Source: a virus. From it: a DNA stretch of 64,000 nucleotides. The stretch lies in the IMG/VR virus record IMGVR_UViG_3300042464_000422, one strand, 5' to 3'. A program made the position numbers and the translations under genes. Positions 5,044 to 59,050 of the stretch are shown here, piece after piece; the first letter of the stretch is position 1, and every line of letters begins with the position of its first letter. The notes below the pieces were generated by a model. That model saw only the letters and a program-made list of their open reading frames with translations. It did not search any database and was not told the origin of the DNA.

Positions 5044-5973
5044 ATGGAAGATTATTATAGTGTTTTGGGGGTTAATGAAAGTGCGACCCAAGAGGAGATT
5101 AAAAGAGAATATAGAAAGTTAGTAAAAGAGAACCATCCTGATAAAGGAGGGGATGAAGAGAAGTTTAAAAAAATCTCAACGGCTTATGATACAATAGGTG
5201 ACGAAACTAAACGTAGGCAGTACGATCAACAAAAAAACAATCCATTTGGTAACATGGGTGGATTTGGTGGAGCATCTATGGAAGAAATGATGAACAGTAT
5301 GTTTGGTGGTAATCGTAGACAACAAACTAGAGTTCACGATACTGTTATTGATGTTCATATTGGTGTGATAGAATCTTATATGGGTGGAAAGAAAACAATG
5401 ACATATAATAGAAAGGATAAATGTAATCCTTGTAATGGAACAGGTGGTGAAAAGAAAGTATGTCACACTTGTGGAGGACAAGGATATACAGTTAAACAAA
5501 TGGGTTCAGGTATGTTCATTCAAATTGTACAGGTTGCTTGTGGAACTTGTAATGGTGTTGGAAAAATAACAACCGCCGCTTGTTATGCTTGCGGTGGACA
5601 AGGGGCTAAAAACACAATAAACACAATAGAAGTACAATTACCACATGGTATTGATGATGGTCAATTTTTAAGGTTACAAGGACTTGGTGATTACAGAAAT
5701 GGGGGTTACGGTAATTTAGTTGTGAGAATAAGAACGATAAATGAGGGAAATTTTGAAAAGGATGGACCTAATTTAATATATAATGCATTTTTAAATATTG
5801 GAGATTTTCAAAAAGGGGATTTTGAGGTACCTCATCCCGATGGATCAATAAGTATTAAGTTTCCTAATAATATAGATACCTCAATGCCGTTAAGAGTTAA
5901 GGGTAAAGGGTTCAAATATCAACCACAAGGTGATTTATTAATTAATCAATATTTAAAATATAATAGAGGTTAG
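5044..5973 (+). CDS. dnaJ: DnaJ-like co-chaperone (J domain, G/F-rich region, CxxCxGxG zinc finger)
   Basis: N-terminal DYYSVLGV...HPDK J-domain motif; GGFGG G/F region; four CxxCxGxG repeats (CNPCNGTG, CHTCGGQG, CGTCNGVG, CYACGGQG). Confidence 0.85.
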   Translation: MEDYYSVLGVNESATQEEIKREYRKLVKENHPDKGGDEEKFKKISTAYDTIGDETKRRQYDQQKNNPFGNMGGFGGASMEEMMNSMFGGNRRQQTRVHDTVIDVHIGVIESYMGGKKTMTYNRKDKCNPCNGTGGEKKVCHTCGGQGYTVKQMGSGMFIQIVQVACGTCNGVGKITTAACYACGGQGAKNTINTIEVQLPHGIDDGQFLRLQGLGDYRNGGYGNLVVRIRTINEGNFEKDGPNLIYNAFLNIGDFQKGDFEVPHPDGSISIKFPNNIDTSMPLRVKGKGFKYQPQGDLLINQYLKYNRG

Positions 5974-6212: not shown

Positions 6213-7052
6213 ATGCTATCATATATCGGAGGTAAAAGTAAAATTGGAAAGTGGATTGTCCCTTTCTATGATAAAAATATGGAAACATATCTTGAAACAT
6301 TTGGAGGTATGTTTTGGTGTTTTTATAACATGGATTTAAAACAATTTCCCAATTTAAATAAAGTTGTGTATAACGACTTTAACCCACTCAACCACAATTT
6401 ATTTAAGTGTGTTCAAAACCCAACTGAATTATTAAGGTCAATCAACTCAATTGACTGTCAAAAATTTGGTAATGAGGTAACACCTGAAATATATCGTGAA
6501 CAATTTGTTTCTTTCCAAAGTGAGTTATTTAATGACGGATTCAAAATTGATGGAGTTGATTATGATGCTGCGGCTAAATATGTTTACGTGTTAACTCAGG
6601 TTTTTAGTGGGTCAAAACCAGAAACGTCAAAATTTATTGACTTAAAAGGAAAATATAAGTCAAAATACCTTACCTTTAGAGACAAGTTAATGAAACCTGA
6701 TTGGGTAGATCATTTCTTAAAGATTACAGATGTTGAAAACATGGATTTTGCGGATGTAATCAATAAGTACGACTCACCATCAACATACATTTACTTGGAC
6801 CCGCCTTATTGGAAAACTGAGAACTACTACTCCAACCACGACTTTGATCGTGACGATCATGAGCGTTTAGCAAATGTGTTAGATGAGGTTAAAGGTAAGT
6901 TTTCATTGTCTTACTATGACTTTGACTTACTTCGTGAATGGTTCCCTGAGGATAAATATACTTGGGTTAGAAAAGAGTTTGCAAAAGCGGCGGCAGCTAA
7001 GAAAGGGGAGAAACAAAATATGGGTGAAGAGTTACTTATAATGAATTACTAA
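6213..7052 (+). CDS. dam: DNA N6-adenine methyltransferase, D12 (Dam) class
   Basis: N-terminal YIGGKSK motif and catalytic DPPY (YLDPPYW). Confidence 0.8.
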   Translation: MLSYIGGKSKIGKWIVPFYDKNMETYLETFGGMFWCFYNMDLKQFPNLNKVVYNDFNPLNHNLFKCVQNPTELLRSINSIDCQKFGNEVTPEIYREQFVSFQSELFNDGFKIDGVDYDAAAKYVYVLTQVFSGSKPETSKFIDLKGKYKSKYLTFRDKLMKPDWVDHFLKITDVENMDFADVINKYDSPSTYIYLDPPYWKTENYYSNHDFDRDDHERLANVLDEVKGKFSLSYYDFDLLREWFPEDKYTWVRKEFAKAAAAKKGEKQNMGEELLIMNY

Positions 7053-9536: not shown

Positions 9537-10292
9537 ATGATTTACACACCAGAATTAATTAAACAAGTGGCACCATCGGTGTTCGCAACAGAACCTTCAA
9601 GTAAATTAACTAACAAATATTCTTTTGTACCTACGGATCAGGTAATTGAATATTTTGTAAGAGAAGGTTGGGATGTTTCTTCGGCACATCAAACGGGTAG
9701 AGGTATCCATGCTTTACATGAAGTTAAATTCCGTAACAAACAATTACCGGCAGTTGGTGATACCTTAGTTGAGGCGATTGTTCGTAACTCACACAATGGT
9801 ACTTCAGGGTTTTCTTTGGGGGCTGGTCTTTATCGTTTGGTTTGTAGTAATGGTCTTGTTGTCCCTACGTCTGTTTCTGAAAGATTTAATATTCGTCATA
9901 AGGCATTTACTTTAGATGAGGTTAAAGAATTGACTGAAAGTTTTAGTAAGAAATTACCTAAGATTGAACATTCTGTTGGTAGAATGATGGCAAGAACATT
10001 AACAATTGATGAGAAGATTGATTTTGTTGAAAAATCCTCTAAGTTTAGATGGTCAATGGGATCTGTACCTGCGGAGTTAAATATTGAAGAAATATTAACA
10101 CCTTTAAGACACGAAGATTCTGGAGATGACCTTTGGTCAACATTCAATATGGTTCAGGAAAAATTTGTCCGAGGGGGTATTGAGTATAAGACAAAAACAG
10201 GTCGTAGATCAAGTTTAAGAAGTTTGAAAAACATATCATCTTTGAATTATGTTAACACAAAACTTTGGGAAACTGCTGAATCGATGTTGTAA
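9537..10292 (+). CDS. DUF932-family protein (phage/plasmid-like)
   Basis: The N-terminal region (...SFVPTDQVIEYF...GIHALHEVKFRNKQLP...IVRNSHNGTSGFSLGAGLYRLVCSNGLVV) resembles DUF932. Flanked by a promoter and a terminator. Confidence 0.55.
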   Translation: MIYTPELIKQVAPSVFATEPSSKLTNKYSFVPTDQVIEYFVREGWDVSSAHQTGRGIHALHEVKFRNKQLPAVGDTLVEAIVRNSHNGTSGFSLGAGLYRLVCSNGLVVPTSVSERFNIRHKAFTLDEVKELTESFSKKLPKIEHSVGRMMARTLTIDEKIDFVEKSSKFRWSMGSVPAELNIEEILTPLRHEDSGDDLWSTFNMVQEKFVRGGIEYKTKTGRRSSLRSLKNISSLNYVNTKLWETAESML

Positions 10293-10668: not shown

Positions 10669-10983
10669 ATGGAAATTACGAGTGTAGAATTACAAGAAAA
10701 AATCAACAAAGGTGAAAAACTTATTATTGAGTTTTGGGCTGAATGGTGTGGGCCATGTAGAATGATGAAACCCATCTTTGAGAGAATCTCAACTGAAAAT
10801 ACATCTGACGTACAAATGTATACAATGAATGTTGATTTAAATAGAGAAGTTGGGGCATCGTTAGGTATTAGAAGTATCCCTACGATTAAGGTAATCAATT
10901 CTGGTGAAGTTATTGACACAAAAGTTGGTGTTCTTAACGAAGGACAACTAAAAGGTATGTTAACTGAATTAATTAATGGATAA
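10669..10983 (+). CDS. trxA: thioredoxin
   Basis: WAEWCGPCRMM active-site motif (WCGPC) in a thioredoxin-sized fold. Confidence 0.85.
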   Translation: MEITSVELQEKINKGEKLIIEFWAEWCGPCRMMKPIFERISTENTSDVQMYTMNVDLNREVGASLGIRSIPTIKVINSGEVIDTKVGVLNEGQLKGMLTELING

Positions 10984-11260
10984 GGTAGCGGTTCTTTTTA
11001 CGATGAAACAATGTCCTTTTTGTCATATGTTAAAAGAAATGTTAGACAAAGAGGGTGTTGAATATGTTGATCGTGACATACACGAATATGAGGAAGAGTA
11101 TAACTTATTTGTTGAAGTAACAGAAAATGAGTTTGTTCCTGCGTTTATGTTGATTGAATCACCTGAGAATAATCCTGTTACTAGATTATTTGCCCCTGAC
11201 CGAGATTTTGAAGATATCAATCAGGGTGCTAAAATCATTAAAGAATTCTTTGAAAGATAG
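10976..11260 (+). CDS. glutaredoxin-like protein (NrdH-like), CPFC active site
   Basis: TMKQCPFCHMLKEML is a CxxC redoxin motif in a 94-aa protein overlapping the thioredoxin gene. Confidence 0.6.
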   Translation: MDKVAVLFTMKQCPFCHMLKEMLDKEGVEYVDRDIHEYEEEYNLFVEVTENEFVPAFMLIESPENNPVTRLFAPDRDFEDINQGAKIIKEFFER

Positions 11261-15706: not shown

Positions 15707-15859
15707 ATGGATAAAAATTTTGACAAATTAATTGAAAAATTAATTAAGGATCTACCAAATGATATGGAGTTAGGTAGAGAAATCAGAAAGGCATATATTA
15801 AAAATGTAAAAGAAAAAAAATCCGAAACCCTTAAATCTAATTTAAATGGGATTCAATAA
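15707..15859 (+). CDS. small hypothetical protein (50 aa), missed by the track
   Basis: ATG 1 nt after the upstream stop (TAAtATG); overlaps the next ORF by 14 nt. Confidence 0.35.
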   Translation: MDKNFDKLIEKLIKDLPNDMELGREIRKAYIKNVKEKKSETLKSNLNGIQ

Positions 15860-16028
15860 AAGAATTTTCACAAAAGAACTTATTATAAGACACATTTATG
15901 ATATTGAAAGATATCTAAGTGTTGATGCGGCATTTTTGAGAGATGATTTCTCAAGAGATGTTTATAGAATGCATAATGAGGGAAAATCAAAAGAAGAAAT
16001 AATAAAATACATAAATGAAAACAAATGA
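15846..16028 (+). CDS. small hypothetical protein (60 aa)
   Basis: ATGA overlap with the glutamine synthetase start. Confidence 0.4.
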   Translation: MGFNKRIFTKELIIRHIYDIERYLSVDAAFLRDDFSRDVYRMHNEGKSKEEIIKYINENK

Positions 16029-17149
16029 AAATTAAGTTAGAGTATGTTTGGCTTGATGGATACAAACCAGAACCAAACCTTAGAAGTAAAGTTAAAATTG
16101 TTGAAAGTGAAGTTCCTATGGAATTAAAAGATATTCCGGTATGGAATTTTGATGGATCATCCACTTCTCAAGCGGAAACAGGTAATTCGGATCGTCTTTT
16201 AAAACCTGTTAGACAATATACAACCCATGGATTCCCATTCATAAATGATACTGTGTATGTGTTATGTGAAGTATTAAATCCTGATGGTACACCACACGAA
16301 TCAAATAAAAGATCTCAGATTGGAGATAACTTTGAAGATCTTTGGTTTGGTTTTGAACAAGAATACTTTATTCGTGAAGAAATTAACGGAAACATTTTAG
16401 GACATAAAAGAAACATTCTTAAAGGTCAGGGTGAATATTATTGTGGTGTGGGTCATAATGTTGTTGGTCGTGATTTTGTTGAAGAACATTTAGAAATGTG
16501 TTTAAACTACGGAATTGATATTACCGGTATAAATGCTGAAGTTGCTTTAGGCCAGTGGGAATATCAAGTATTTTCAAAAGGAAAACATAAAGGAGGAGAT
16601 GATCTCTGGATGACTCGTTACTTCTTATTTAAGATGGGGGAAAAATACGGATATCATATTGAACTACATCCAAAACCATTAACTCACGGAGAATGGAATG
16701 GATCAGGACTCCACACAAATTTTTCAACAGATATGATGAGAAACGAGGGGAATGAGAAATATTTTATGGCTTTGTTTAATGCATTTGAATCAAGACACCA
16801 AGATCATATTAAAGCGTATGGGTCCAACAACAACCTTCGTTTAACTGGTGAGTATGAAACTCAATCAATTGATAAGTTCAGTTGGGGTGTGTCTGATCGA
16901 GGAGCGTCAATTAGAGTTCCACAAGATACCGCAAAAGAATGGAAAGGTTATGTTGAAGATCGTAGACCTGGATCAAACGCGGATCCATACAAAATTATTC
17001 GTGAGATTGTTAAATCATTAGACACCACTAAACAAATCTATGAAATGAAAGATATAATGACTAGATTTGTTGATATGGATGGTTTAAGTGGTAAGTACAA
17101 TGCCATATCAAATGAAGAATTATTAAAAGAATATAGAGAGGAGGAATAA
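16025..17149 (+). CDS. glutamine synthetase type II-like (eukaryote-type GSII catalytic fold)
   Basis: Near-collinear match to GSII landmarks: YVWLDG..., WNFDGSSTSQAETGNSD, FEQEYF, YYCGVG...GRD, NAEV..GQWEYQV, NGSG.HTNFST, GASIR.P, YVEDRRP.SNADPY. Confidence 0.85.
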   Translation: MKIKLEYVWLDGYKPEPNLRSKVKIVESEVPMELKDIPVWNFDGSSTSQAETGNSDRLLKPVRQYTTHGFPFINDTVYVLCEVLNPDGTPHESNKRSQIGDNFEDLWFGFEQEYFIREEINGNILGHKRNILKGQGEYYCGVGHNVVGRDFVEEHLEMCLNYGIDITGINAEVALGQWEYQVFSKGKHKGGDDLWMTRYFLFKMGEKYGYHIELHPKPLTHGEWNGSGLHTNFSTDMMRNEGNEKYFMALFNAFESRHQDHIKAYGSNNNLRLTGEYETQSIDKFSWGVSDRGASIRVPQDTAKEWKGYVEDRRPGSNADPYKIIREIVKSLDTTKQIYEMKDIMTRFVDMDGLSGKYNAISNEELLKEYREEE

Positions 17150-17151
17150 TA

Positions 17152-17436
17152 ATGGATAATTTAAAAGTGTGTTTATGTGGGGGTACAGGACCTTGTCAGT
17201 GTCCTCCACTAAAAGTAGAACAAGTTAACCATCCACTACATTATGGTGGAGTAAACAATCCTTACGAAGCCATCAAGGTAATAGATGCTTGGGGATTAGG
17301 ATTTAGTTTAGGTAATACAGTAAAATACATTTCAAGAGCCGGAAAGAAAGATTCGGATAAAGAATTACAAGATTTAAAAAAGGCATTATGGTACTTACAA
17401 CACCATATTAAAATGTTAGAAAATCAAAATGGATAA
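17152..17436 (+). CDS. DUF3310-like phage protein
   Basis: The NHPLHYGG...EAIKVIDAWGLGF..GNTVKYISRAGKK...DLKKALWYL pattern resembles DUF3310. Confidence 0.45.
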   Translation: MDNLKVCLCGGTGPCQCPPLKVEQVNHPLHYGGVNNPYEAIKVIDAWGLGFSLGNTVKYISRAGKKDSDKELQDLKKALWYLQHHIKMLENQNG

Positions 17437-17749
17437 AAAAACTAAAAAAGTATTAGAAAAAGAGATTGTTGTTTTAGATGCGATAACAAGTCCGGGGGAA
17501 CTTATAAGAGAAACTTTAATTAATTTTACTTGGGGATTATTAGGGAACTCCGTAGTGGTTTTTGTTTCTAAAGAAATGGATTTCATGGTTTTAATTAACT
17601 ATATTTTATACTACATTTTAATATCATATATTGTGAATAGAAAAAAATACGAAACCATGTTAGGTAAGTTTATTGTACTTCCTGGATCGGCAGCAATCGG
17701 TGCTTATACGGGATACAAAATTGCACAATTAATTTCAGGAACATTATGA
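17429..17749 (+). CDS. small membrane protein (2 predicted TM)
   Basis: Hydrophobic segments FTWGLLGNSVVVFV and VLINYILYYILISYIV. Confidence 0.5.
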   Translation: MDKKTKKVLEKEIVVLDAITSPGELIRETLINFTWGLLGNSVVVFVSKEMDFMVLINYILYYILISYIVNRKKYETMLGKFIVLPGSAAIGAYTGYKIAQLISGTL

Positions 17750-18684
17750 AAATAGTAGTAACGGGAGGGGCGGGTTTTATAGGTTCCGCATTTATAAATC
17801 ACTTATTAGATAACTTTGAATGTGATGTTCTTTGTATTGATAAACTGACTTATGCTGGTAAAAGAGAAAATATCAAACATAATGTTTCGTTTCTACAAAA
17901 AGATATTTGTGAGGTGACGGCAGATCAACTTGGTGAATTTGATTATATTGTTCATTTTGCTGCGGAATCTCATGTAGATAATTCAATTAAAAATGGGTTA
18001 CCATTTGTTAGAACTAATGTGGAAGGAACATTCAATTTGTTGGAGATTTCAAGAAAGAATAAAAATCTTAAGAAATTTATTCACATCTCAACTGATGAAG
18101 TTTATGGGGACATGGATGATCATTTTGCAATAAACCATACTGCAACAGAGGAGAATAAGATTAAACCAAGTTCCTATTACTCATCAACTAAGGCAGCTTC
18201 TGATATGTTAGTTATTTCCGCAAATAGGACATATGGGTTACCATACTTAATCACAAGAACTTGTAATAATTTTGGGGAACATCAATTTGAAGAGAAATTC
18301 CTCCCAACAATTACAAGATCAATTAATGAGGGTAACTCAATACCTGTTTATGGTGATGGAAAACAGGTAAGGGAATGGATGTATGTGTATGATAATGTAA
18401 AAGTAATATGTGACCTAATGTTTGATGATGAGGTTATAAATCAAATTTTTAACATTGGAACACGTTTTAGATTAACTAATTTAGATATTATTAAAGAAAT
18501 AGGTATTATTTTAAATAAAGATGTTAAAATAAAACACGTTGAGGATAGATTAGGTCATGATAAGAAATATGGTTTAAATACCAATAAAATGGATAACTAC
18601 TATAAAAATAAACATGGACAAATACCTGAATTTTTAAATTTAATAAACTATCTAAAAAAAATTTACGGAAATGAAATGGGATAG
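17746..18684 (+). CDS. NAD-dependent epimerase/dehydratase (RmlB-like dTDP-glucose 4,6-dehydratase family)
   Basis: N-terminal TGGAGFIGS Rossmann motif and catalytic YSSTKAASD (YxxxK). Confidence 0.8.
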   Translation: MKIVVTGGAGFIGSAFINHLLDNFECDVLCIDKLTYAGKRENIKHNVSFLQKDICEVTADQLGEFDYIVHFAAESHVDNSIKNGLPFVRTNVEGTFNLLEISRKNKNLKKFIHISTDEVYGDMDDHFAINHTATEENKIKPSSYYSSTKAASDMLVISANRTYGLPYLITRTCNNFGEHQFEEKFLPTITRSINEGNSIPVYGDGKQVREWMYVYDNVKVICDLMFDDEVINQIFNIGTRFRLTNLDIIKEIGIILNKDVKIKHVEDRLGHDKKYGLNTNKMDNYYKNKHGQIPEFLNLINYLKKIYGNEMG

Positions 18685-18824: not shown

Positions 18825-19670
18825 ATGATAGAAACAGGAAAAATAATAAATGGGGATTGTGTTGAGGTAATGAAAACACTACCTGAAGGAACGGTAGATC
18901 TGATTGTAACGTCTCCACCTTATGGGGTTGGCATTGCGTATGATGTTCACGAAGATGATGTTGAATTTGATGAATATGTTGAGTTTGCAAAAAATTGGTT
19001 AACAGAAGCGTATAGATTATTAAAAGATGATGGAAGAATCGCTTTGAATATTCCATATGAGATTAATCGTCAAAAAAAAGGAGGTCGTATCTTTTTTGTA
19101 TCTGAGATGTGGCAAATTATGAAAGAGATTGGTTATGGGTTCTTTGGAATCGTTGACCTTGAAGAACAATCACCACATAGAAGCAAGACAACGGCTTGGG
19201 GATCTTGGATGAGTCCTAGTTCACCATATATCTATAACCCAAAAGAATGTGTTATCTTAGCGTATAAGAAACAACACATCAAAAAAGTTAAAGGTCAACC
19301 ACAATGGACCGGAGTTCCAACTGATATTGAACAGGAAGATGGAACATTAAAGAAAAAAGTAGTTTATGAAGAGGAAGATAAGAAAGAGTTTATGGAGCTT
19401 GTTTTTGGTCAGTGGAATTATTTTGCAGATACAAAATCACTCACCAAGGCGACCTTCTCAATGGACATCCCAACGAAAGCAATCAAAATATTGTCCTACA
19501 AAAACGATGTAGTATTAGATCCGTTTGCGGGATCTGGAACAACTTTAGTGGCGGCAGAAATATTAAATCGTAGATGGTTAGGAATTGAATTATCACCTAA
19601 TTATATGGAAATTGCTTTAGAAAGAGTTAGTTTATTTGCGAATCAGAAATCACTCTTTGATCAAAATTGA
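18825..19670 (+). CDS. beta-class DNA amino-methyltransferase (N6A or N4C), SPPY motif
   Basis: DLIVTSPPYGVG (motif IV) near the N-terminus and FAGSGTT (motif I) near the C-terminus, which is the beta-class order. Confidence 0.8.
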   Translation: MIETGKIINGDCVEVMKTLPEGTVDLIVTSPPYGVGIAYDVHEDDVEFDEYVEFAKNWLTEAYRLLKDDGRIALNIPYEINRQKKGGRIFFVSEMWQIMKEIGYGFFGIVDLEEQSPHRSKTTAWGSWMSPSSPYIYNPKECVILAYKKQHIKKVKGQPQWTGVPTDIEQEDGTLKKKVVYEEEDKKEFMELVFGQWNYFADTKSLTKATFSMDIPTKAIKILSYKNDVVLDPFAGSGTTLVAAEILNRRWLGIELSPNYMEIALERVSLFANQKSLFDQN

Positions 19671-20006
19671 ATCTCCCTCGGTGATATCGTATTTGATACA
19701 ATCACCACCATTGATCTCTAAGATCATATCACCAACACCTTCATAGTGGGAACATTTCGTATTGTCTTGTTCCCTACATGGAGGACAGTCACTGTAAATT
19801 TTTTGAATTTTACCGTCTGATATGTAAATGATGTCTAAAGAAATCAAACAATCTTTCATCCAAAATGAATGATAACCTTCATTCATTACAAATAACATTC
19901 CATTAAATGTGTCATTAAATTTTTTACCTTTCATCCCTTCTTGAATGTCTTTATCAGTTATTGCTGATTTGACATTAAAAAGATTATTGTTTATTATTAT
20001 TTCCAT
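19650..20006 (-). CDS. DUF192-family protein
   Basis: FWMKDCLISLDIIYISDGKI...MILEINGGDCIKYDITEGDSI resembles DUF192 (COG1430). Minus strand, convergent with the methyltransferase gene. Confidence 0.5.
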   Translation of the reverse strand: MEIIINNNLFNVKSAITDKDIQEGMKGKKFNDTFNGMLFVMNEGYHSFWMKDCLISLDIIYISDGKIQKIYSDCPPCREQDNTKCSHYEGVGDMILEINGGDCIKYDITEGDSILIKE

Positions 20007-20025
20007 ATTTATAAATATAGGAGGT

Positions 20026-20445
20026 ATGAAGAAAAATAAAAGATTTTCCGGTATATTAGTTAAATGTAATGATAAGGTATTGTTGTGTAAGAGAAGTAAT
20101 GATAATACTTTACCTGGCGTTTGGTCAATACCTGGTGGTGGGATAGAAGATGGGGAAAGTCCTGAAGATGCTGCTCGTAGAGAGTTTTATGAAGAAACAA
20201 ATATCAAAGTTGATGGTAATTTAGATTTAGTTGGATTTATTGATCGTTATAATAAAGACGGGACTTATTTAAAAGGATTTATGTATGTGTACTCTTTAGA
20301 GGTGGATGAAGAGATTTATCCCGATTTAGAAAACGCAGTTGATGGTGGAGAACATACTGAATGTGGTTACTTTGGTATTAATAATTTACCATTGGATAAA
20401 AAAAATGATGAATTTTATAATATTATTGTAAATAATTTAAAATAA
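20026..20445 (+). CDS. NUDIX hydrolase
   Basis: Nudix box GGGIEDGESPEDAARREFYEETNI. The start is moved to ATG 20026, which is preceded by AGGAGG at 20019-20024. Confidence 0.75.
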   Translation: MKKNKRFSGILVKCNDKVLLCKRSNDNTLPGVWSIPGGGIEDGESPEDAARREFYEETNIKVDGNLDLVGFIDRYNKDGTYLKGFMYVYSLEVDEEIYPDLENAVDGGEHTECGYFGINNLPLDKKNDEFYNIIVNNLK

Positions 20446-20536
20446 AATTGAATTTTGGTAAATAATGGTATATTTATATCATACAAAAACAACCAAAATC
20501 CCCCTTCTCAGTTATTTAATGGTTAATCAAAACATA

Positions 20537-20586
20537 ATCCCATAATTTTTTTAAAAAAAAAGTTGTGGGATTTTTTGTTTTTGTTT
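20537..20586 (+). terminator. long AT-rich hairpin (about 16 bp, aatcccataattttttt / aaaaaaagttgtgggatt) followed by TTTTTTGTTTTTGTTT
   Basis: Inverted repeat plus T-rich tail between the NUDIX gene and the promoter of 20641. Confidence 0.5.
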
Positions 20587-23261: not shown

Positions 23262-23287
23262 GGGAGGGGTTAACCTTCCCTTTTTTT
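23262..23287 (+). terminator. hairpin (GGGAGGG/CCTTCCC, 7 bp with one G-U) followed by T7; overlaps the 3' end of the minus-strand sigma gene
   Basis: agggaggggttaaccttccc then ttttttt. A second near-palindrome, gtcggacaattcgttgtcgac, lies at 23237-23257. Confidence 0.55.
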
Positions 23288-23830
23288 ATTTAGTTTTTCT
23301 AAATAAGATTTAACATTTGCTTTTGCTTTAAATAAATTTGATTTTGAGGTCCCATCACTAATTCCTAATTCATCGGCAATTTCTTGGTGAGACATATTTT
23401 CAAAATAATACATATTAAAAATTCTTTTATATGATGGTGATAAACTTTCCATCGCATCTTTAATATCTGACATAGAAAAAATGGGTTCTTCATTTGGTAT
23501 ATCCTCAAGACCTAAATCTTCATAACCAAAATCAACATCTTTTCTTTTTGGAGATCTTTTTTCTTTTCTTAATTCATCAATAATTGTATTTTTTATAATA
23601 CGTTGAATCCAACCTTCAAGGCTACCTGAACCATCGTACATAGACATTTTTTGGTGAACTTTAATAAACCCTAATTGACAAAAATCATTTGCCTTTTCTA
23701 TATCACCATTTGCATATCTTAAACAAATTTGTTTAAATAGTTTTGGGTATAATCTTTTATATTCAAGATCAAAATTAAAACCTTCATTTAATAGGTGTTG
23801 ATATTGTAACTCAGTCAAGATAATTTTCAT
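23270..23830 (-). CDS. ECF-type sigma-70 family RNA polymerase sigma factor
   Basis: Region-2-like segment (LGFIKVHQKM...GWIQRIIKNTIIDELRK) and region-4 HTH (YYFENMSHQEIADELGISDGTSKSNLFKAK). Confidence 0.75.
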   Translation of the reverse strand: MKIILTELQYQHLLNEGFNFDLEYKRLYPKLFKQICLRYANGDIEKANDFCQLGFIKVHQKMSMYDGSGSLEGWIQRIIKNTIIDELRKEKRSPKRKDVDFGYEDLGLEDIPNEEPIFSMSDIKDAMESLSPSYKRIFNMYYFENMSHQEIADELGISDGTSKSNLFKAKANVKSYLEKLNKKREG

Positions 23831-27971: not shown

Positions 27972-28415
27972 ATGGAAAAACAAAAATATAGAATTTATTT
28001 GGATGATGTAAGAACACCGGTTAGTCCTAACAATGCATTGGTGGATGGTATTCCTGAGTGGACTGTGGTTCGTTCTTACGACGAGTTCGTACAAAAGATA
28101 AACTCAATTGGTTTGGAGAACATTGAGTTAATCTCATTAGATCACGACTTGGGTGACAGTGCTATGTCAGAATGGTTATATGGTGTTACTAAAAACTATT
28201 CAATTAACTACGATAACATTACCGAAAAAACCGGTATGGATTGTACTAAATGGTTAGTGAATCAATGGTTAGATGGTAAACCTGTTGTTGAAGTTGTAGT
28301 TCATTCCGCAAACGCTGTTGGTAGTGCAAATATGATGGGTTACATTAACAATTACCGACACCTCAATCGTTTACCACAAAATTGTGTGAGAGTACAAATA
28401 GAACATACAGTATAA
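27972..28415 (+). CDS. hypothetical protein
   Basis: 147-aa ORF. Confidence 0.5.
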   Translation: MEKQKYRIYLDDVRTPVSPNNALVDGIPEWTVVRSYDEFVQKINSIGLENIELISLDHDLGDSAMSEWLYGVTKNYSINYDNITEKTGMDCTKWLVNQWLDGKPVVEVVVHSANAVGSANMMGYINNYRHLNRLPQNCVRVQIEHTV

Positions 28416-28689: not shown

Positions 28690-29823
28690 ATGGAAAATTT
28701 AAATAGTGTATGTTATGTTGGTGTGATCGGAGAGATATTACCAATAGATGGAGCGGATAACATTGAACTTGCATTGGTTGGTGGTTGGCAAGCCATTACT
28801 AAGAAAGGTGAATATAGTGTTGGTGATAAGGTTGTTGTTGCAACTACCGATGCGGTAATCCCTGTTGAATTATCTGATTTAATGGGCGTAACTAATTACC
28901 TAAGAAAAGGTCAAAGAGTTCGCACCGTTAAACTTCGTAAAGTTTACTCTGAGTGTTTGTTAATACCATTCAAATACTTGGCACCAAGGTCTTTGGAGAA
29001 CAATGTAAATGAAGGTCACGACATGATGGAACTGTTAGGTATCACTAAATATGAACCACCAGTTAAGATGGTTGAGATGAGTGTTGGTGGAAGAAAATTC
29101 AAATACCACCAAAACCCGAACTTCCACATTTACTACAAATTCCCAAATATGAAGAACGTACCTGATATGTTCAATGAGGAGGATGAAGTATGTATCACTC
29201 GTAAGTTACACGGAACCAATGCTCGTTACGGTATTGTGAGAAAGAAAAAACTTTCAATCCTTGATAAGATTAAAGGGTGGTTTGGTAATCAATGGGTTGG
29301 TTACGAATACGTTTATGGATCCCACAACGTTGAGAAGGGATCTGACTCTCAAGGTTTTTATGCAACTGATGTGTGGAAAACAGTTGCGGAAAAATATGAT
29401 ATCCGTAAAAAACTTTGGGATCACGTTAAAGATACTTTTGATCCTAATGATGTTGGTTCAGGATTTATCATCTATGGTGAAATCTATGGACACGGAATAC
29501 AAAAGAATTACGACTATGGTTTAACTGAAATCCGTTTTGCGGGATTTGACGTTGAGGTTGATGGATCTTATGTTGATAACATTTACCAATCAACTCATTT
29601 TAAATGTTTAGGTTTAGAAGAAGTTGAAACTTTATATTCAGGTCTTTGGTCAAAAGAAGAACAAGATAAATATGTGTTTAATAACAACATTCAAGGAACT
29701 AAAGTTCCTCACGAAGGTATTGTTGTAAAATGTTTATCTGGTAATCGTCATAAGATTGGAAAAGTAATCAACCCTGATTATTTAATTTACGGTGAAAAAA
29801 ATAACGTAGGTGACTCCCATTAA
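28690..29823 (+). CDS. ATP-dependent RNA ligase (Rnl2-like nucleotidyltransferase) with an N-terminal OB/tRNA-binding-like domain
   Basis: Motif I RKLHGTNARYG (KxHGxN), motif III FIIYGEIYG, motif V PHEGIVVK. The N-terminus (ILPIDGADNIELALVGGWQAI) resembles Trbp111-type OB folds. Confidence 0.7.
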   Translation: MENLNSVCYVGVIGEILPIDGADNIELALVGGWQAITKKGEYSVGDKVVVATTDAVIPVELSDLMGVTNYLRKGQRVRTVKLRKVYSECLLIPFKYLAPRSLENNVNEGHDMMELLGITKYEPPVKMVEMSVGGRKFKYHQNPNFHIYYKFPNMKNVPDMFNEEDEVCITRKLHGTNARYGIVRKKKLSILDKIKGWFGNQWVGYEYVYGSHNVEKGSDSQGFYATDVWKTVAEKYDIRKKLWDHVKDTFDPNDVGSGFIIYGEIYGHGIQKNYDYGLTEIRFAGFDVEVDGSYVDNIYQSTHFKCLGLEEVETLYSGLWSKEEQDKYVFNNNIQGTKVPHEGIVVKCLSGNRHKIGKVINPDYLIYGEKNNVGDSH

Positions 29824-31886: not shown

Positions 31887-33743
31887 ATGGGAAAAATAAT
31901 TGGAATTGACTTGGGAACAACTAACTCGTGTGTTGCCGTGATGGAAGGAAAGGAACCTGTAGTTATTACAAATAACGAAGGTAAACGAACAACGCCATCT
32001 GTAATCGGATTCATTAAAGATGGTGAAAGAAAGATTGGGGATCCGGCTAAACGACAAGCGGTAACCAATCCTGAAAAAACCGTACATTCAATTAAACGAT
32101 TTATGGGAACAAGTTTTACTGAATCTAAAAATGAGGTAAAGAAAGTTCCTTATAAAGTTGTAAAAGGAGATGGTGGATCACCAAGAGTGGATATTGATAA
32201 ACGACAGTATTCTCCGCAGGAACTTTCCGCAATGGTTTTACAAAAAATGAAACAAACTGCTGAGGATTATTTGGGTGAGACGGTTACTGAGGCGGTTATT
32301 ACGGTACCAGCGTATTTTAATGATGCTCAACGACAGGCAACCAAAGAAGCGGGTGAGATTGCGGGTTTGGAAGTAAAACGTATCATTAATGAGCCAACAG
32401 CGGCGGCATTAGCATATGGTTTAGATAAAATGTCTAAAGATATGGTAGTGGTTGTGTTTGACTGTGGTGGTGGTACACACGATGTTTCTATTCTTGAATT
32501 AGGTGATGGTGTATTTGAAGTATTGTCTACTGATGGTGATACTCACTTAGGTGGTGATGACTTTGATCAGGTTATTATTGAATGGTTAGCAAATGAATTC
32601 AAAGATGAGAATGGAATTGATGTGACCAAGGATCCGATGGCGTTACAACGTTTACGAGAAGCGGCAGAAAAGGCAAAAGTTGAATTATCTTCAACCTCAT
32701 CAACGGAAATTAATTTACCGTATTTGATGCCGGTAGATGGGATGCCAAAACACTTGGTTAGAACTTTATCAAAATCTAAATTTGAACAACTGGCAGATTC
32801 ATTAATCAAACGAACTATTGAACCTTGTAAGACAGCGTTGAAAAATGCTAAGATGGATGTGTCTGATGTTGATGAAATTATCTTGGTTGGAGGTACAACA
32901 AGAATTCCGGCAATTCAAGAAGCGGTTAAACAATTCTTTGGTAAGGAACCATCTAAAGGTGTTAATCCTGATGAGGTAGTTGCTTTAGGTGCGGCGATCC
33001 AAGGTGGTGTACTTGCTGGTGATGTTAAAGATGTCTTATTATTAGATGTGACTCCATTATCTTTAGGTATTGAAACTATGGGTGGAGTTATGACTAAATT
33101 GATTGATGCTAACACCACGATCCCAACTAAAAAATCTCAGGTGTTCTCAACGGCAGTAGATAATCAACCAACAGTTGAGATCCACGTACTTCAGGGAGAA
33201 CGAGCAATGGCAAAAGATAATAAAACCATTGGTAAGTTCAATTTAGATGGTGTTCCACCAGCGATGAGAGGTGTTCCACAAATTGAGGTTACGTTTGATA
33301 TTGATGCGAATGGTATTATCAATGTTTCTGCAATGGATAAAGGTACAAACAAACAACAAACAATTCGTATCGAAGCGTCCTCAGGTTTATCAAAAGAAGA
33401 GATTGAGAAAATGAAACAAGAAGCTGAGTTAAATGCCGAACAGGATAAAAAACTCAGAGAAGATGCTGAAGTTCTAAACACGGCTGATGGTACAATCTTC
33501 CAAACTGAGAAGTCAATCAAAGATTTGGAAGATAAATTAACTGAAGAACAAAAGAGTGAACTTGATGGATTACTTGGAACGTTAAAAGAATCTTACGCAA
33601 AAAAAGACATTGAGAAGATTAATCAAGATATTGAAAATCTTAATAGTCAGTTCCACCATATTAGTCAATCATTGTACGAACAAACTACAACTGAAGAAGG
33701 TAATGATGCTCCGTCTGACGTTGAATTTGAAGAAGTACTTTAA
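31887..33743 (+). CDS. dnaK: molecular chaperone DnaK (Hsp70)
   Basis: Collinear Hsp70 signatures: [36 protein letters not shown], the substrate-binding domain and a C-terminal lid. Confidence 0.95.
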
Positions 33744-36751: not shown

Positions 36752-37306
36752 ATGGTCATAGAAATTAATAATTTTTTATCGTACGAAGAATGTGATAATT
36801 TAATAAGTTTAGCCTCAGATATTTTTGATGAAGTTGGAGTTCTTGGTGAGAGTATTGAAGGGTATAGAGTTGCAAAAGGGGCTTGGTTAGATGAAGAACA
36901 TGGGGATGTTGTTATAAAATATAGAGACCTTATTTCTGAGACGACCAAACTACCAAAAATTAATATGGAAAGTATTCATGTTGTTAAATATAGTGTTGGT
37001 GAAGAATATAAAGATCATCATGATTTTTTTCATCCTGGTGAAGAATACTATGAGGATGAGGTAAATAGAGGTGGACAAAGATTAAAAACGGCTTTGGTTT
37101 ACTTAAATGATGATTTTGAAGGTGGAGAAACAAATTTCCCAAATTTAAATATTAAAGTTGATCCTAAAAAAGGTAAACTTGTATTGTGGGACAACATTAA
37201 AGATGATGGTTCTTTAGATTACGATAGCCTTCATGCTGGATTACCCGTAAAAAGTGGTTACAAGTATATTGCGGTAATTTGGATTAGAGAGAATGAATTT
37301 TATTAA
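36752..37306 (+). CDS. 2OG-Fe(II) oxygenase (prolyl-4-hydroxylase-like)
   Basis: HHDFFHPG (HxD) ... LHAGLPV (distal His) ... KYIAVIWI fits a P4H-type double-stranded beta-helix. Confidence 0.6.
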   Translation: MVIEINNFLSYEECDNLISLASDIFDEVGVLGESIEGYRVAKGAWLDEEHGDVVIKYRDLISETTKLPKINMESIHVVKYSVGEEYKDHHDFFHPGEEYYEDEVNRGGQRLKTALVYLNDDFEGGETNFPNLNIKVDPKKGKLVLWDNIKDDGSLDYDSLHAGLPVKSGYKYIAVIWIRENEFY

Positions 37307-37596: not shown

Positions 37597-37835
37597 AAAA
37601 GTTAATATTAATTACTTTAGTTGGGATAGTATTGTTTTCTTGTAAGAGAAAAGAATATAAATATGAAATTCACGGGAAAGTTTATATCCCAACCTCAGGG
37701 TTGAACCCAATGCATGATGCAATATGGTATACGGATACAATTAGTTTTGATGGTGACACATTATATTATTTTAATAGTGATGGGTCTGAAGTAAGAATTT
37801 ATCCACCGTATATTTTAAAAGATAATTCAAAATGA
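37593..37835 (+). CDS. putative lipoprotein (lipobox VLFSC)
   Basis: MKKLILITLVGIVLFSCKRK. Confidence 0.5.
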   Translation: MKKLILITLVGIVLFSCKRKEYKYEIHGKVYIPTSGLNPMHDAIWYTDTISFDGDTLYYFNSDGSEVRIYPPYILKDNSK

Positions 37836-38245
37836 AGATAGGAATAACTTGCTCCTGTTTTGATTTATTTCATGCGGGACACGTAAAGATGTTGGAGGAA
37901 GCTAAAACTCAATGTGATTATTTAATTATTGCGTTACAAACAGATCCAACAATTGATAGACCAGAAAAAAACAAACCAATACAATCGGTCGTTGAAAGAT
38001 ACATTCAACTTAAAGGTTGTAAATTCGTTGATGAGATCATACCATACGAAACTGAAAAAGATTTAGAAGATCTTTTTAACACATTAAAATTAGATGTTAG
38101 AATTATTGGTGAGGACTATAAGGGTAAAGATTTCACCGCAAAACAAATATGTTTAGATAGGAGTATTGTGTTATACTACAATGAAAGAAAACACAATTTC
38201 TCAAGTACAGAACTTAAAAAAAGAATAAACAATGGCAAAAATTGA
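37832..38245 (+). CDS. cytidylyltransferase-like nucleotidyltransferase (HxGH; TagD/RfaE-domain-II type)
   Basis: GITCSCFDLFHAGHVKML matches the (H/T)xGH motif of the cytidylyltransferase family. Confidence 0.7.
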   Translation: MKIGITCSCFDLFHAGHVKMLEEAKTQCDYLIIALQTDPTIDRPEKNKPIQSVVERYIQLKGCKFVDEIIPYETEKDLEDLFNTLKLDVRIIGEDYKGKDFTAKQICLDRSIVLYYNERKHNFSSTELKKRINNGKN

Positions 38246-41045: not shown

Positions 41046-41672
41046 ATGGAAAATTACGAAATACTTGAAAATGGTTTAATAAAACAAAAATCTATCGTTA
41101 ATAAGATCCAAACGTATGATACAAAATATGTGGATGAAAGATATAATCAATACGGTGAAAAAGGACCTCAAATGGCTGGTATTCGACTTGGATATTTAGT
41201 TGGGACTTTAGGTTACTGGCCACAATCCATACTAGATATTGGATATGGTAATGGTGATTTCTTAAAGGTCTGTAAAGGTGTTATTGAGTCATATGGTAAT
41301 GATGTTTCAGGATATCCTGTACCTGAAGGTGTTACATACACTGATAATATATTTGATAAACATTACGAGGTGATCTCATTCTTTGATGTATTGGAACATT
41401 TTGAGGAAATTGATTTCGTAAAAGATTTGGATTGTAATTACGTCTACATTAGTTTACCTTGGTGTCACAACTTTAGTGAAGAATGGTTTATGAATTGGAA
41501 ACACAGAAGACCTGATGAACATTTGTGGCATTTTAATGAAAAGTCAATTGAAAACTTCTTCAATGAAATGGGGTATGACATGGTTGATTATTCAAATGTT
41601 GAAGATTTAATAAGAGTTTCTGGTGAAGAATATCCTAACATTTTAACTTGTATCTTTAAGAAAAGAAAATAA
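41046..41672 (+). CDS. class I SAM-dependent methyltransferase-like
   Basis: ILDIGYGNGDF is a glycine-rich motif I, followed by an acidic motif II (VISFFDVLEH). Confidence 0.5.
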   Translation: MENYEILENGLIKQKSIVNKIQTYDTKYVDERYNQYGEKGPQMAGIRLGYLVGTLGYWPQSILDIGYGNGDFLKVCKGVIESYGNDVSGYPVPEGVTYTDNIFDKHYEVISFFDVLEHFEEIDFVKDLDCNYVYISLPWCHNFSEEWFMNWKHRRPDEHLWHFNEKSIENFFNEMGYDMVDYSNVEDLIRVSGEEYPNILTCIFKKRK

Positions 41673-42589
41673 TGGGAGAATTTGGAATAAAAGTTTCTGA
41701 GACATTTGGAGATACGATATATATGACACCTGTAATTGCTTACATGAGCAGGTGTCATAATAAAAAGTTTCATGTTGAGACAATGTTTCCTGATCTATTC
41801 AAAAACAATCCTTATGTGGAAAAAGTATATAACACCAAAAATGGTGAATTTTTTCCTGAAGATATAATCGTTTATGAAGCGAAACGAATATTTGAAGGGG
41901 ATATGTTTAGGCAAAGAAAAATGCATTCAATTGACTTTTATTCAAGTAATCTTGGATTTATTTTAGCGCCTGAAGAAAAAACTTTATTATATTATCCTGA
42001 TGAATTGGATATGGAGTTACCTGAAGGAAGATATGTTGTTATAAATCCTTCCGTTACAACTACTTGTCGTACATGGGATAAAGAGAAATGGGAAACATTA
42101 ATAGATATGATCATCAGTACGGGTACAAAAGTTGTTGTTGTTGGTAAAGAAATAAATTACGACCATGAATTTAACAGAGGTGTTATGCGTGTTGGTGGTG
42201 ATAAAGTTATTGATCTAATCAATAAATTAAATACCTCACAGTTATGGCATATAATTGAGAATAGTTTAGTGATATTTACGATGAACGCAGGATTATGGCC
42301 GTTCGCAGGTACAACAGATGCCAACATAATTGCAATGGGAAGTACAATTAATCCTTATTATCGGGCACCATACAGACATGGTAGACAAGATTATAAACAT
42401 TATTTTGTTGGGGGTGAATGTAAAATATTTTGTCATACTGACATGAAGTATAATTCAAGTGGGGATATTAAAGTTACTGGAGGTTTTCCAATAGCAAAAT
42501 GTTTTGAAAATAAACCAACTTATGAGTGCCATCCAACGCCAGAAAATGTATTTAAAACATTTTTAAATTTACTTGAAAATAAAAATTAA
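41672..42589 (+). CDS. GT9-like glycosyltransferase (heptosyltransferase family), copy 1
   Basis: N-terminal FGDTIYMTPVI..., RYVVINPSVTTTCRTWDKEKWETLIDMI...KVVVVG resembles the GT9 pattern (GD..P., IvlnPgas...K.W., .vvl.G). Confidence 0.55.
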   Translation: MGEFGIKVSETFGDTIYMTPVIAYMSRCHNKKFHVETMFPDLFKNNPYVEKVYNTKNGEFFPEDIIVYEAKRIFEGDMFRQRKMHSIDFYSSNLGFILAPEEKTLLYYPDELDMELPEGRYVVINPSVTTTCRTWDKEKWETLIDMIISTGTKVVVVGKEINYDHEFNRGVMRVGGDKVIDLINKLNTSQLWHIIENSLVIFTMNAGLWPFAGTTDANIIAMGSTINPYYRAPYRHGRQDYKHYFVGGECKIFCHTDMKYNSSGDIKVTGGFPIAKCFENKPTYECHPTPENVFKTFLNLLENKN

Positions 42590-42591
42590 TA

Positions 42592-43515
42592 ATGAGATAC
42601 GGATTTAAAATAGAAGGTTGTTTTGGTGATGTGTTATATTCAACACCTGTGTTAAGATATTTGAGTGTGTGTCATAATGATAAGATAGATGTTGAAACTA
42701 ATTTCCCAATTATCTTTAAGAACAACCCATATGTTGGTAAAATATATGACACTAACCAAAATGAATTTTTACCTGGTGGTCAAGAATTTTATGATTGTAA
42801 TGGTCATAATTTTGAGGATGTTCAAAAACAAATTAGAAAAATGCATCTCACCGATTATTGGTCAACTCATTTGGGTTTTATTTTAACGCCAGAAGAAAAA
42901 ACAATTAATTTTTATCCGGATCCAATTGACATTGACTTACCTGAAGGTGATTACATTGTAATAAGTCCGTCAAAAACTTGGGAATGTAGAACGTGGGACA
43001 AAGAAAAATGGGAAAAGTTAACTGAAATGATTTTAAAGTTAGGGATAAAAGTTGTTGTTACTGGTAAAGATATAAGTTATGGTGATGATATAAAAAGCTC
43101 TATAGAAATTGACAATCCTAATGTGATAAATTTGATAAATAAATTAAATTTGTCTCAGTTATGGCATTTGGTTAATAATAGTTTGGTTACCATAACTATG
43201 AATGCTGGTTTATTACCTTTTGCTGGGACTACAGATGTAAATATTTTGGAATTAGGGGGAGCAATTAATCCGGCATATAGATCCCCATTTAGGAATGGAT
43301 CGCAGGAATATAAACACAAATTTGTTGGGGGTTCTTGTAAATTATTTTGTCAGTCAGATATGAAATATAATGTGATTGGAGATCAAAAAATTACAAGATG
43401 GAATAGTTTTGCAGCACCGGCTTGTTATGAAAAAAAACCAACATATGAATGTCACACATCAGTTAATGCTGCTTTTAATGGGGTTTTAGAGTTTTTAAAA
43501 ATGAAAAATAAATGA
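42592..43515 (+). CDS. GT9-like glycosyltransferase, tandem paralog (copy 2)
   Basis: Collinear similarity to 41672..42589 along the whole length (FGD.LY.TPV..., PEG.Y.VI.PS.T..CRTWDKEKWE.L..MI...G.KVVV.GK, ...KYN..GD.K.T). Confidence 0.55.
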   Translation: MRYGFKIEGCFGDVLYSTPVLRYLSVCHNDKIDVETNFPIIFKNNPYVGKIYDTNQNEFLPGGQEFYDCNGHNFEDVQKQIRKMHLTDYWSTHLGFILTPEEKTINFYPDPIDIDLPEGDYIVISPSKTWECRTWDKEKWEKLTEMILKLGIKVVVTGKDISYGDDIKSSIEIDNPNVINLINKLNLSQLWHLVNNSLVTITMNAGLLPFAGTTDVNILELGGAINPAYRSPFRNGSQEYKHKFVGGSCKLFCQSDMKYNVIGDQKITRWNSFAAPACYEKKPTYECHTSVNAAFNGVLEFLKMKNK

Positions 43516-45963: not shown

Positions 45964-46110
45964 ATGACGGAAGAAGAAAAGGATAACAGAATAAAAGAAC
46001 TTGAGGAATTTCTTGAAGAGGTTATTGAACATCCTTATATGTATGGGTCACACATTTGGGAAGAAGGATGTAAATTATTAAACAAAGATGAAGATGAACA
46101 AACTAGATAA
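45964..46110 (+). CDS. small acidic hypothetical protein (48 aa), missed by the track
   Basis: MTEEEKDNRIKELEEFLEEVIEHPYMYGSHIWEEGCKLLNKDEDEQTR; it fills the gap before thyA. Confidence 0.3.
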   Translation: MTEEEKDNRIKELEEFLEEVIEHPYMYGSHIWEEGCKLLNKDEDEQTR

Positions 46111-58357: not shown

Positions 58358-59050
58358 ATGAAAATAAGTATAATATCTGACACACACAACAAACACAAGT
58401 TTGTACATCATGATTTACCTGGTGGTGATTTGTTATTACACGCAGGTGACATAAGTTCTATGGGTTATGAACACGAGATACGTGAGTTTGCTGCTTGGTA
58501 TGATAAGATTGTTACTTATGGTCATAAAGTATTCATTGCTGGTAATCACGATTGGGGGTTCCAAAACAATGAAGAAAAAATAAAAGGATTGTTAACGGGA
58601 TATAAAACTATTGAGTATATCCAAGACGAATTAATAACCATACAAGATGGTGATGGACCTGAAGTTAAGATTTGGGGTAGTCCTTGGCAACCTGAGTTCT
58701 ACAATTGGGCATTTAACTTACCACGAAATGGTGAGGAGTTAAAGGCGGTTTGGGATATGATACCTGAAGGTATTGACATCTTAATCACTCATGGGCCTGC
58801 TTGGGGTTTCTTAGATGATGTTGAAGGTCGTAGAGGACAACACTTAGGTTGTGAGTTACTTGCGGAACGTATTAAACAAATTAAACCTAAGATTCATATT
58901 TGTGGTCATATTCACTCAGGTCACGGACACTATTATGACGGACATACACACTACTTCAATGCATCTGTGTTGAACGAACGATACCTTTATTCACATACAC
59001 CATGGAATATTGATTGGGATCCAATAACTAATGAAATTAAATTTTTATAA
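58358..59050 (+). CDS. calcineurin-like metallophosphoesterase
   Basis: ISDTHN (DxH), HAGDIS (GD), AGNHD, ITHGP, CGHIHSGHGH. Confidence 0.8.
   Translation: MKISIISDTHNKHKFVHHDLPGGDLLLHAGDISSMGYEHEIREFAAWYDKIVTYGHKVFIAGNHDWGFQNNEEKIKGLLTGYKTIEYIQDELITIQDGDGPEVKIWGSPWQPEFYNWAFNLPRNGEELKAVWDMIPEGIDILITHGPAWGFLDDVEGRRGQHLGCELLAERIKQIKPKIHICGHIHSGHGHYYDGHTHYFNASVLNERYLYSHTPWNIDWDPITNEIKFL

Follow-up and report, generated by a model that had tools for sequence, protein, structure and literature searches.

Glutamine synthetase (GS) genes of huge phages have already been reported, in 2025 to 2026. As far as the keyword-searched passages of these papers go, the HPGC preprint recorded 248 GS genes in 247 huge-phage genomes, mostly freshwater or marine, and proposed a role in glutamine supply (10.1101/2025.02.27.640493). 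The "moraphages," freshwater phages of 200 to 307 kb with predicted Flavobacteriia hosts, which encode DnaK, DnaJ, and glycosyltransferases and no RNA polymerase, carry GS in 9 of 25 genomes, and their authors placed it among the host-takeover genes (PMC12619734). In a 2026 study of large phages from a mudflat, glnA of large phages groups with prokaryotic homologues in the tree (PMC13172472), and a further survey lists glnA among the auxiliary metabolic genes (AMGs) of jumbo phages. Here we describe a GS gene located in a 64,000-nucleotide stretch of viral DNA, IMG/VR record IMGVR_UViG_3300042464_000422 (the whole of this stretch is referred to below as the window). The gene (16025..17149, + strand) encodes a type II glutamine synthetase (GSII) of 374 amino acids, and our analysis makes it likely overall that its product is an active, ammonia-dependent enzyme sustaining glutamine supply. 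The case is a largely ordinary and well-supported one, and it adds a checked example to the very large aquatic phages with a nitrogen-assimilation enzyme of their own.

Sequence identity of the phage glutamine synthetase

The gene is an uninterrupted ATG-to-stop open reading frame (ORF; 374 codons plus the stop codon) with matches in Pfam, NCBIfam, and PDB. Its two-domain layout and its length are those of GSII enzymes (~330 to 375 amino acids). Its N-terminal beta-grasp domain (Gln-synt_N, PF03951; residues 5 to 86, 16037..16282, + strand; Pfam, 6e-09) carries D43 and S46, ammonium-site residues equivalent in the alignment to human D63 and S66 and of the type donated by the neighboring subunit in GSII structures. 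The catalytic domain (Gln-synt_C, PF00120; residues 105 to 322, 16337..16990, + strand; Pfam, 8e-17) contains the bulk of the metal, glutamate, and ATP site residues, the site residues within it being E111, E113, Y139, E172, E179, N225, G226, H230, N232, S234, R239, R272, E278, R292, R297, Y309, E311, R313, and R314. The NCBIfam GlnII model NF041605 aligns with residues 1 to 332 over model positions 1 to 328 of 333 (E value 4e-98; 328.6 bits), and since this alignment spans nearly the whole model, the match is a collinear one over the full length and the gene is not a fragment.

Models for the other GS classes scored far lower with the same ORF. The GSI model TIGR00653 gave 61 bits (cutoff, 429), the GSIII model TIGR03105 gave 32 bits (cutoff, 470), and the gamma-glutamylputrescine synthetase (PuuA) model NF045547 gave 28.6 bits (cutoff, 650), i.e., scores 5 to 10 times below that obtained with GlnII. 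Sequence matches in PDB point in the same direction, with yeast Gln1 (3FKY; 1e-85) and Streptomyces coelicolor GlnII (4BAX; 1e-83) ahead of fly, plant, and human/mammalian GSII (1e-74 to 1e-78) and GSI chains reaching no better than 1e-10. The AlphaFold2 (AF2) monomer model, computed from a shallow alignment of 49 sequences that were 79 to 95% identical, was weak (mean predicted local distance difference test score [pLDDT], 54.9) and was not used for the active site or for the C-terminal tail described below; searched with Foldseek, this poor model returned GSII structures only. The JGI annotation of these proteins is also glutamine synthetase. By sequence comparison, then, the ORF is, far beyond chance, a complete and real GSII. 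This agrees with the original prediction, made from the DNA letters, that a phage here encodes an entire GSII and not a piece of one, and the full-length GlnII match, the Pfam two-domain structure, the PDB GSII matches, and the occurrence of the gene on viral contigs all bear it out.

Catalytic residues and purifying selection

As a reference for the active site we used the set of 26 substrate-site residues examined by alanine scanning of the mammalian enzyme (PMC6601560), mapped onto the phage protein through an alignment with human GS (the human sequence used is identical to PDB 8DNU over 373/373 residues). Twenty-three of the 26 human residues are identical in the phage enzyme. The conserved set comprises the metal ligands E111, E113, E172, E179, H230, and E311 (human E134, E136, E196, E203, H253, and E338); the glutamate site residues N225, G226, R272, and R313; the ATP/phosphate site residues W107, G168, N232, S234, R239, R292, R297, Y309, and R314 (the human counterparts of the glutamate and ATP/phosphate residues together being N248, G249, R299, R319, R324, R340, R341, N255, S257, R262, Y336, W130, and G192); and the ammonium site plus Glu flap, D43, S46, Y139, and E278 (human D63, S66, Y162, and E305). 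The three substitutions affect human K333, A191, and P208, replaced in the phage protein by W306, T167, and S184, respectively. A tryptophan at the K333 position is also present in bacterial GlnII, and the A191 and P208 positions of the human enzyme are dispensable according to the alanine scan (PMC6601560). All 23 conserved residues are invariant in 240/240 relatives, 120 of them at 78 to 95% identity and 120 at 57 to 63%. The ammonium and glutamate sites, to which the original prediction had drawn attention, are canonical throughout.

Enzymes of the GS fold that ligate amines other than ammonia offer an informative comparison. In the gamma-glutamyl-amine ligases GlnA3 and PauA7, the GSI residues D50, Y179, and E327 are replaced by glycine, alanine, and tryptophan, replacements that make space for bulky amines (PMC5403932). 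The phage enzyme retains the equivalents of all three, namely, D43, Y139, and E278.

Selection was assessed from the ratio of nonsynonymous to synonymous substitution rates (dN/dS) against 80 IMG/VR homologues. Pairwise dN/dS for the GS gene had a median of 0.087 (range, 0.04 to 0.14), with a value of 0.07 for the core of the protein, and GS protein identity remains at 81 to 86% in loci whose flanking genes drop to 24 to 60%. Judged from these substitution patterns, the catalytic site is intact and under strong selection.

A virus-only clade beside bacterial GlnII

When 1.84 billion 50%-cluster representatives were searched with HMMER, none outside the close clade of the phage GS exceeded 57% identity to it. 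In a profile-guided scan of 185,579 GTDB species genomes, the best of the matches listed were 50 to 58% identical and were headed by Saprospiraceae, Pirellula, and Puniceicoccaceae, with other Bacteroidota; GlnII proteins of cultured Flavobacteriaceae (Aquimarina, Leeuwenhoekiella) appeared among them at 53 to 55%. Human GS is 42.5% identical to the phage protein. In a neighbor-joining (NJ) tree of 224 sequences (300 columns, 100 bootstraps, midpoint rooted), the phage clade was monophyletic with a bootstrap value of 100, or 99 when the divergent member P0121 was included. It branched beside a group of 75 bacterial GlnII tips that excludes it (bootstrap, 73) and outside the clade formed by the GlnII of Flavobacteriaceae (bootstrap, 82), the eukaryotic references lying in the opposite half of the tree. 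The G+C content at third codon positions was 0.23 for the GS gene and 0.20 to 0.26 for the neighboring phage genes. In addition, gene order and the position of GS within it are kept at ~60% GS identity, which argues for vertical inheritance. In sequence terms the phage GS is closest to bacterial GlnII, is no recent host passenger, and is a long-term resident of phages.

These results modify three statements of the original prediction. The designation "eukaryote-type" stands as the traditional name of the class but not as an indication of origin, given the 52 to 58% identity with bacterial GlnII versus 42.5% with human GS. The description of a complete GSII in a phage as rare applies to deposited phage genomes, where 4 of 50,697 INPHARED records, all from uncultured huge phages, carry one, but not to aquatic jumbo phages, in which the gene is common: at least 594 IMG/VR viral contigs, some of 274 to 291 kb, encode a relative, as do thousands of database clusters, and there are the published reports mentioned above. 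Finally, it had been reasoned that a recent passenger gene would combine fully canonical substrate-site residues with a place inside its host's own clade; the residues are canonical, but the protein lies outside the GlnII clade of the presumed host.

A clade-specific C-terminal extension

The phage protein extends ~40 amino acids past the end of cellular GlnII. Alignments define this segment (residues 335 to 374; 17027..17146, + strand) as a clade-specific tail, with conserved positions M345, L354, K357, [YF]358, S362, and [ED]365-L-L-x-E-Y370 that are common to both subclades (~60% mutual identity). Some clade members have a longer tail, for a total length of 398 to 423 amino acids. The extension is absent from the cellular GlnII, eukaryotic GSII, and INPHARED huge-phage GS sequences examined. 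Its dN/dS is 0.18 versus 0.07 for the core. No Pfam match and no detectable homology were found for it, and the AF2 model is unreliable in this region.

In the literature passages searched by keyword, the tail is the sole feature of this enzyme for which no description was found. There is a small chance that it gives the virus-only GSII clade a phage-specific property, regulatory or interaction related, such as escape from host feedback/regulation, docking to a partner of phage or host origin, or a change in oligomerization. In that event the gene would do more than simply duplicate a host function and, considered alongside the other GSII lineages of huge phages, would point to GSII having been recruited repeatedly and convergently by phages of very large size.

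Predicted function and alternative explanations

We propose that the gene specifies a catalytically competent, ammonia-using GSII (glutamate + NH4+ + ATP -> glutamine + ADP + Pi) and that it is a long-resident, vertically inherited AMG of a freshwater jumbo-phage lineage with probable Bacteroidota/Flavobacteriia hosts. It would be expressed from a tightly packed string of + strand genes and would raise or maintain the glutamine supply of the infected cell independently of host nitrogen control. Glutamine donates the amide nitrogen in the synthesis of purines, pyrimidines, NAD, and amino sugars, for which a genome of >200 kb creates a large need. The features expected of a phage AMG are present, i.e., a cellular-type gene, phage-type genes on both flanks, and a dN/dS of 0.087. 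That the protein is an active GS is predicted with high confidence; that its physiological role is glutamine supply seems somewhat probable, and we infer assembly into a decamer of two stacked pentamers with active sites where subunits meet, the timing of expression, and a physiological benefit. Of the two roles raised in the original prediction, nitrogen/glutamine metabolism during infection is the better supported by the present data, and the same interpretation is found in the passages seen of the huge-phage and moraphage papers. If the enzyme is active, lake Bacteroidota under infection would assimilate ammonium under viral, not host, control, which would be relevant to freshwater nitrogen flux, a consequence that is incremental rather than surprising.

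Several observations weigh against this interpretation. The GlnII score of 328.6 bits lies under the NCBI curated equivalog cutoff of 500, which marks the protein as a divergent GSII; by that threshold, strict equivalence of function is not assured. The C-terminal tail, which is without a counterpart in characterized GSII, might indicate that its role has been modified. The 64-kb window revealed neither a glutamine amidotransferase nor any other enzyme that consumes glutamine, so that pathway context in support of the proposed benefit is missing there. The NJ tree does not resolve the deep nodes, and the donor lineage is therefore not nameable. As for the host, its assignment comes from a type IX secretion sorting domain encoded in the window (see below) and from the moraphage paper and not from a direct link, and a search with the phage DnaK for homologues indicative of the host returned phage-clade sequences only, at >=90% identity, and so gave no host information.

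The GS fold also supports gamma-glutamyl-amide chemistry, as PuuA, GlnA3, and their relatives show, and the original prediction considered that the phage protein might use it. In such a scheme the enzyme would be a PuuA/GlnA3/PauA7-like ligase modifying a polyamine, a nucleotide, or a DNA base in concert with the RmlB-like, methyltransferase, and NUDIX gene products encoded nearby. The lineage-wide block of a DUF3310/nucleotide-kinase-type gene, a DNA methyltransferase, and NUDIX around GS could be read in this way, as could the thymidylate-synthase-like neighbor in another sublineage (gene order is detailed in the next section). We nevertheless regard the ligase hypothesis as very improbable. 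The PuuA model scores far below its cutoff (28.6 versus 650 bits), and D43, Y139, and E278, along with S46, are retained and invariant in the 240 relatives. The RmlB-like gene is inserted variably, GS is accompanied by unrelated genes in other huge phages (AAA ATPase, PPK2, and TnsA-like nuclease), and a gene order conserved over >15 kb reflects collinearity with no operon-specific link.

A second alternative accepts the identity of the protein but not its bulk metabolic purpose: GS would act mainly as a regulator or decoy whose tail binds a host or phage partner, e.g., a nitrogen-regulatory protein or a defense factor. GS enzymes are partners of regulators in some bacteria. The conservation of the ~40-amino-acid tail across subclades that are ~60% identical, its dN/dS of 0.18, and its absence from the cellular GSII examined are compatible with this idea, and so is the grouping of GS with host-takeover genes by the moraphage authors in the passages available. 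The complete invariance of the catalytic residues and the core dN/dS of 0.07 are, however, the pattern expected if catalysis is what is selected, no binding partner was identified, and the tail is without detectable homology or confident structure, leaving a regulator/decoy function unlikely. Still less credible, to the point of being almost negligible, is that GS is a recent host passenger, or that the contig is cellular or misassembled, with no phage-specific role for the gene. Bacteroidota, including Flavobacteriaceae, do carry GlnII proteins 52 to 55% identical to that of the phage among the matches listed, and one close fragment (P0085, on a 1.2-kb contig) is labeled as a protein of a Bacteroidetes metagenome-assembled genome. 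Against this, no cellular sequence exceeds 58% identity in either the 1.84 billion representatives or the listed GTDB matches, the clade has a bootstrap value of 100 and lies outside the host clades, and its position in the genome is conserved in divergent relatives. An identical protein with the same phage neighbors recurs on contigs from 38 collection blocks, the codon-position G+C content matches that of the phage, and purifying selection is strong. An active, ammonia-dependent GSII sustaining glutamine supply is the explanation we retain.

Gene order around the glutamine synthetase locus

The surroundings of the gene were surveyed in the 80 best IMG/VR loci of the at least 594 contigs that encode a relative. 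Immediately upstream in the window is a 60-amino-acid ORF (15846..16028, + strand) that ends in a stop codon shared in part with the GS start codon (ATGA), a sequence arrangement that suggests cotranscription and translational coupling of the two; a homologous small ORF abuts GS in 61/80 loci. On the other side, a DUF3310 protein gene (17152..17436, + strand; Pfam DUF3310 and PHROG "nucleotide kinase" families) starts 3 nucleotides past the GS stop codon. DUF3310 is the most constant GS neighbor in the lineage, being the nearest recognized downstream gene, at a distance of <=700 nucleotides, in 77 of the 80 loci and also in a 295-kb contig (L179). Where the contig permits, the usual order is GS, DUF3310, a 106-amino-acid ORF (usually present), an N4/N6 methyltransferase, DUF192, and NUDIX. 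The corresponding genes of the window are the N4/N6 DNA methyltransferase (18825-19670, + strand), DUF192 (- strand; between the methyltransferase and NUDIX in the block 18825..20445), and NUDIX (19945-20445, + strand), after which there is a terminator-like hairpin (20536-20572).

The window also has a gene for an RmlB-like NAD-dependent epimerase/dehydratase (17746..18684, + strand; Pfam). This gene was detected in 10/80 loci, seven of them those with the closest GS plus L011, L023, and L037, and it does not adjoin GS in contigs L179 and L180 (112 kb); its presence in 10 loci only makes it a variable insertion in the block with no link to GS. The RmlB-like, methyltransferase, and NUDIX genes noted in the original prediction are accordingly all there, but the first is a feature of the closest relatives, and other huge phages have unrelated genes next to GS.

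In the two contigs with ~60%-identical GS, L179 and L180, the wider order is thioredoxin-glutaredoxin ... GS-(DUF3310 or guanylate-kinase-domain gene)-methyltransferase ... DUF192, and NUDIX follows DUF192 in the 112-kb contig. The guanylate-kinase-domain protein is encoded after GS in L180 (9368-9853), at the place where the window has the stand-alone DUF3310 gene (17152-17436). Gene order is conserved over >15 kb, and since this distance spans unrelated genes, the conservation most probably reflects genome collinearity and vertical inheritance and not a dedicated operon. In a minority arrangement, found in two long contigs (274 and 291 kb) and in the P0023 contigs, GS adjoins a thymidylate-synthase-like gene. 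An interpretation of the P0023 neighbors as a sign of lost synteny was rejected, as the 80-locus count shows the DUF3310-methyltransferase-DUF192-NUDIX order to be the rule. The nucleotide-metabolism neighbors (nucleotide-kinase-type, ThyA-like, and NUDIX) hint only weakly at a connection with nucleotide supply. Sigma-70 promoter-like sites were not enriched in the sequence (51 versus 47.3 +/- 6.4 in shuffled sequence), and no promoter is claimed.

Source virus and other genes of the window

The window has a G+C content of ~31% and nearly all its genes on one strand. An identical GS protein is encoded on a metagenomic contig of 208,644 bp (JGI 3300034102, Ga0335029_0000014) and on contigs in 38 assembly-collection blocks, in each case with the same neighbors. 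A comparison of 20 kb of the window with INPHARED by megablast gave no match, i.e., there is no close deposited phage. Genes for capsid, portal, terminase, or tail proteins were not found inside the 64-kb window among the 30 larger ORFs searched with PHROG and Pfam, and the window is therefore assigned to a virus on the basis of IMG/VR membership, gene content, and contig size. No tRNA gene was detected by a tRNA scan, and no RNA polymerase was found in the window.

A set of chaperones and a protease is encoded within this one phage window: DnaK/Hsp70 (31887-33743, + strand; 860 bits to Pfam HSP70), a three-domain DnaJ (5044-5973, + strand), and ClpP (47461-48183, + strand). Relatives of the DnaK form >120 database clusters at >=90% identity, all of them environmental. 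A sigma-70 family (ECF-like) factor with regions 2 and 4 according to the precomputed Pfam annotation is encoded on the minority strand (23270-23830, - strand). Other recognizable products are a Dam methyltransferase (6213-7052), a DUF932 protein (9537-10292), an adjacent thioredoxin and glutaredoxin pair upstream of the GS block (10669-11260, + strand), a phage-type RNA ligase (28690-29823), and an endolysin-like protein (63210-63806). A thymidylate-synthase-like protein of 377 amino acids (46088-47221, + strand) matches the PHROG thymidylate synthase end to end but covers ~95 residues more than does the stretch of the profile that it matches, suggestive of an insertion. Smaller auxiliary genes encode a cREC_REC-domain protein (27972-28415, + strand) and a 2-oxoglutarate-Fe(II) oxygenase (36752-37306, + strand). 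Scattered sugar-nucleotide/glycosylation genes, all on the + strand, which may serve DNA or virion glycosylation, comprise the RmlB-like dehydratase (17746-18684), a cytidylyltransferase (37832-38245), two family-9 glycosyltransferases (41672-43515), and an RmlC-like dTDP-sugar isomerase (59050-59547).

Two larger proteins have surface-type domains. One is a C-type lectin plus LamG protein of 575 amino acids (53731-55458, + strand), and the other is a cohesin-domain protein of 636 amino acids (48816-50726, + strand) with a C-terminal sorting domain of the type IX secretion system (T9SS; Por_Secre_tail). Such a T9SS sorting signal in a phage-encoded protein argues for a Bacteroidota host and possibly for export through the host's own system. 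A giant-virus (nucleocytoplasmic large DNA virus [NCLDV]) origin was considered and rejected in view of the bacterial-type DnaK/DnaJ, the sigma-70 family factor, the T9SS domain, and DUF3310; the Dam and N4/N6 methyltransferases and the overlapping start/stop codons are further evidence to the contrary. The source is a large freshwater jumbo phage, probably with a Bacteroidota host, and, by gene content, probably belongs to the moraphages or close relatives. The agreement with moraphages covers gene content, size class, and sample type, the lineage markers TerL, MCP, and PolB lying outside the window.

Relationship to described glutamine synthetases

Bacterial GlnII (NF041605; S. coelicolor 4BAX) is the closest of the known systems. 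It shares with the phage GS the two-domain architecture, all metal, glutamate, ATP, and ammonium residues, and the tryptophan at the K333 position, and it includes the nearest cellular relatives at 52 to 58% identity among the matches listed (Saprospiraceae, Pirellula, and Flavobacteriaceae). The phage enzyme differs in its subcutoff score, its membership in a virus-only clade, and its ~40-amino-acid tail. The eukaryotic GSII (yeast Gln1 3FKY, human GLUL 2OJW/8DNU, and maize GS1a 2D3A) have the same fold and active site but are more distant, with human GS only 42.5% identical and placed in the other half of the tree. The PuuA, GlnA3, and PauA7 ligases have in common with the phage protein the GS catalytic fold and the ATP-dependent activation of glutamate, but the equivalents of D50, Y179, and E327 that they have lost are kept in the phage enzyme.

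Among phages, the GSII of LR756501, LR756502, and LR745206 (genomes of 635 to 735 kb) are likewise complete, with all catalytic residues. They are 46 to 56% identical to the GS described here, lack the tail, have other neighbors, and fall on other branches of the NJ tree with weak support, that of LR756501 with Saprospiraceae/Chitinophagales. In this 735-kb phage, a PPK2 gene is located ~1.4 kb downstream of GSII (L089 5434-6648). The sequence relationships suggest at least three separate acquisitions of GSII by phages. The GS genes of the published huge- and jumbo-phage studies (10.1101/2025.02.27.640493, PMC12619734, and PMC13172472) are, from the passages searched by keyword, of the same kind, from the same kind of virus, and from the same habitat. 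The GS type, the state of the active site, a separate viral clade, a fixed locus, and a tail were not found in those passages, and relative to them the present analysis adds the assignment to type II with a canonical ammonia-type site, an old and abundant virus-only clade at a fixed locus, and the C-terminal tail.

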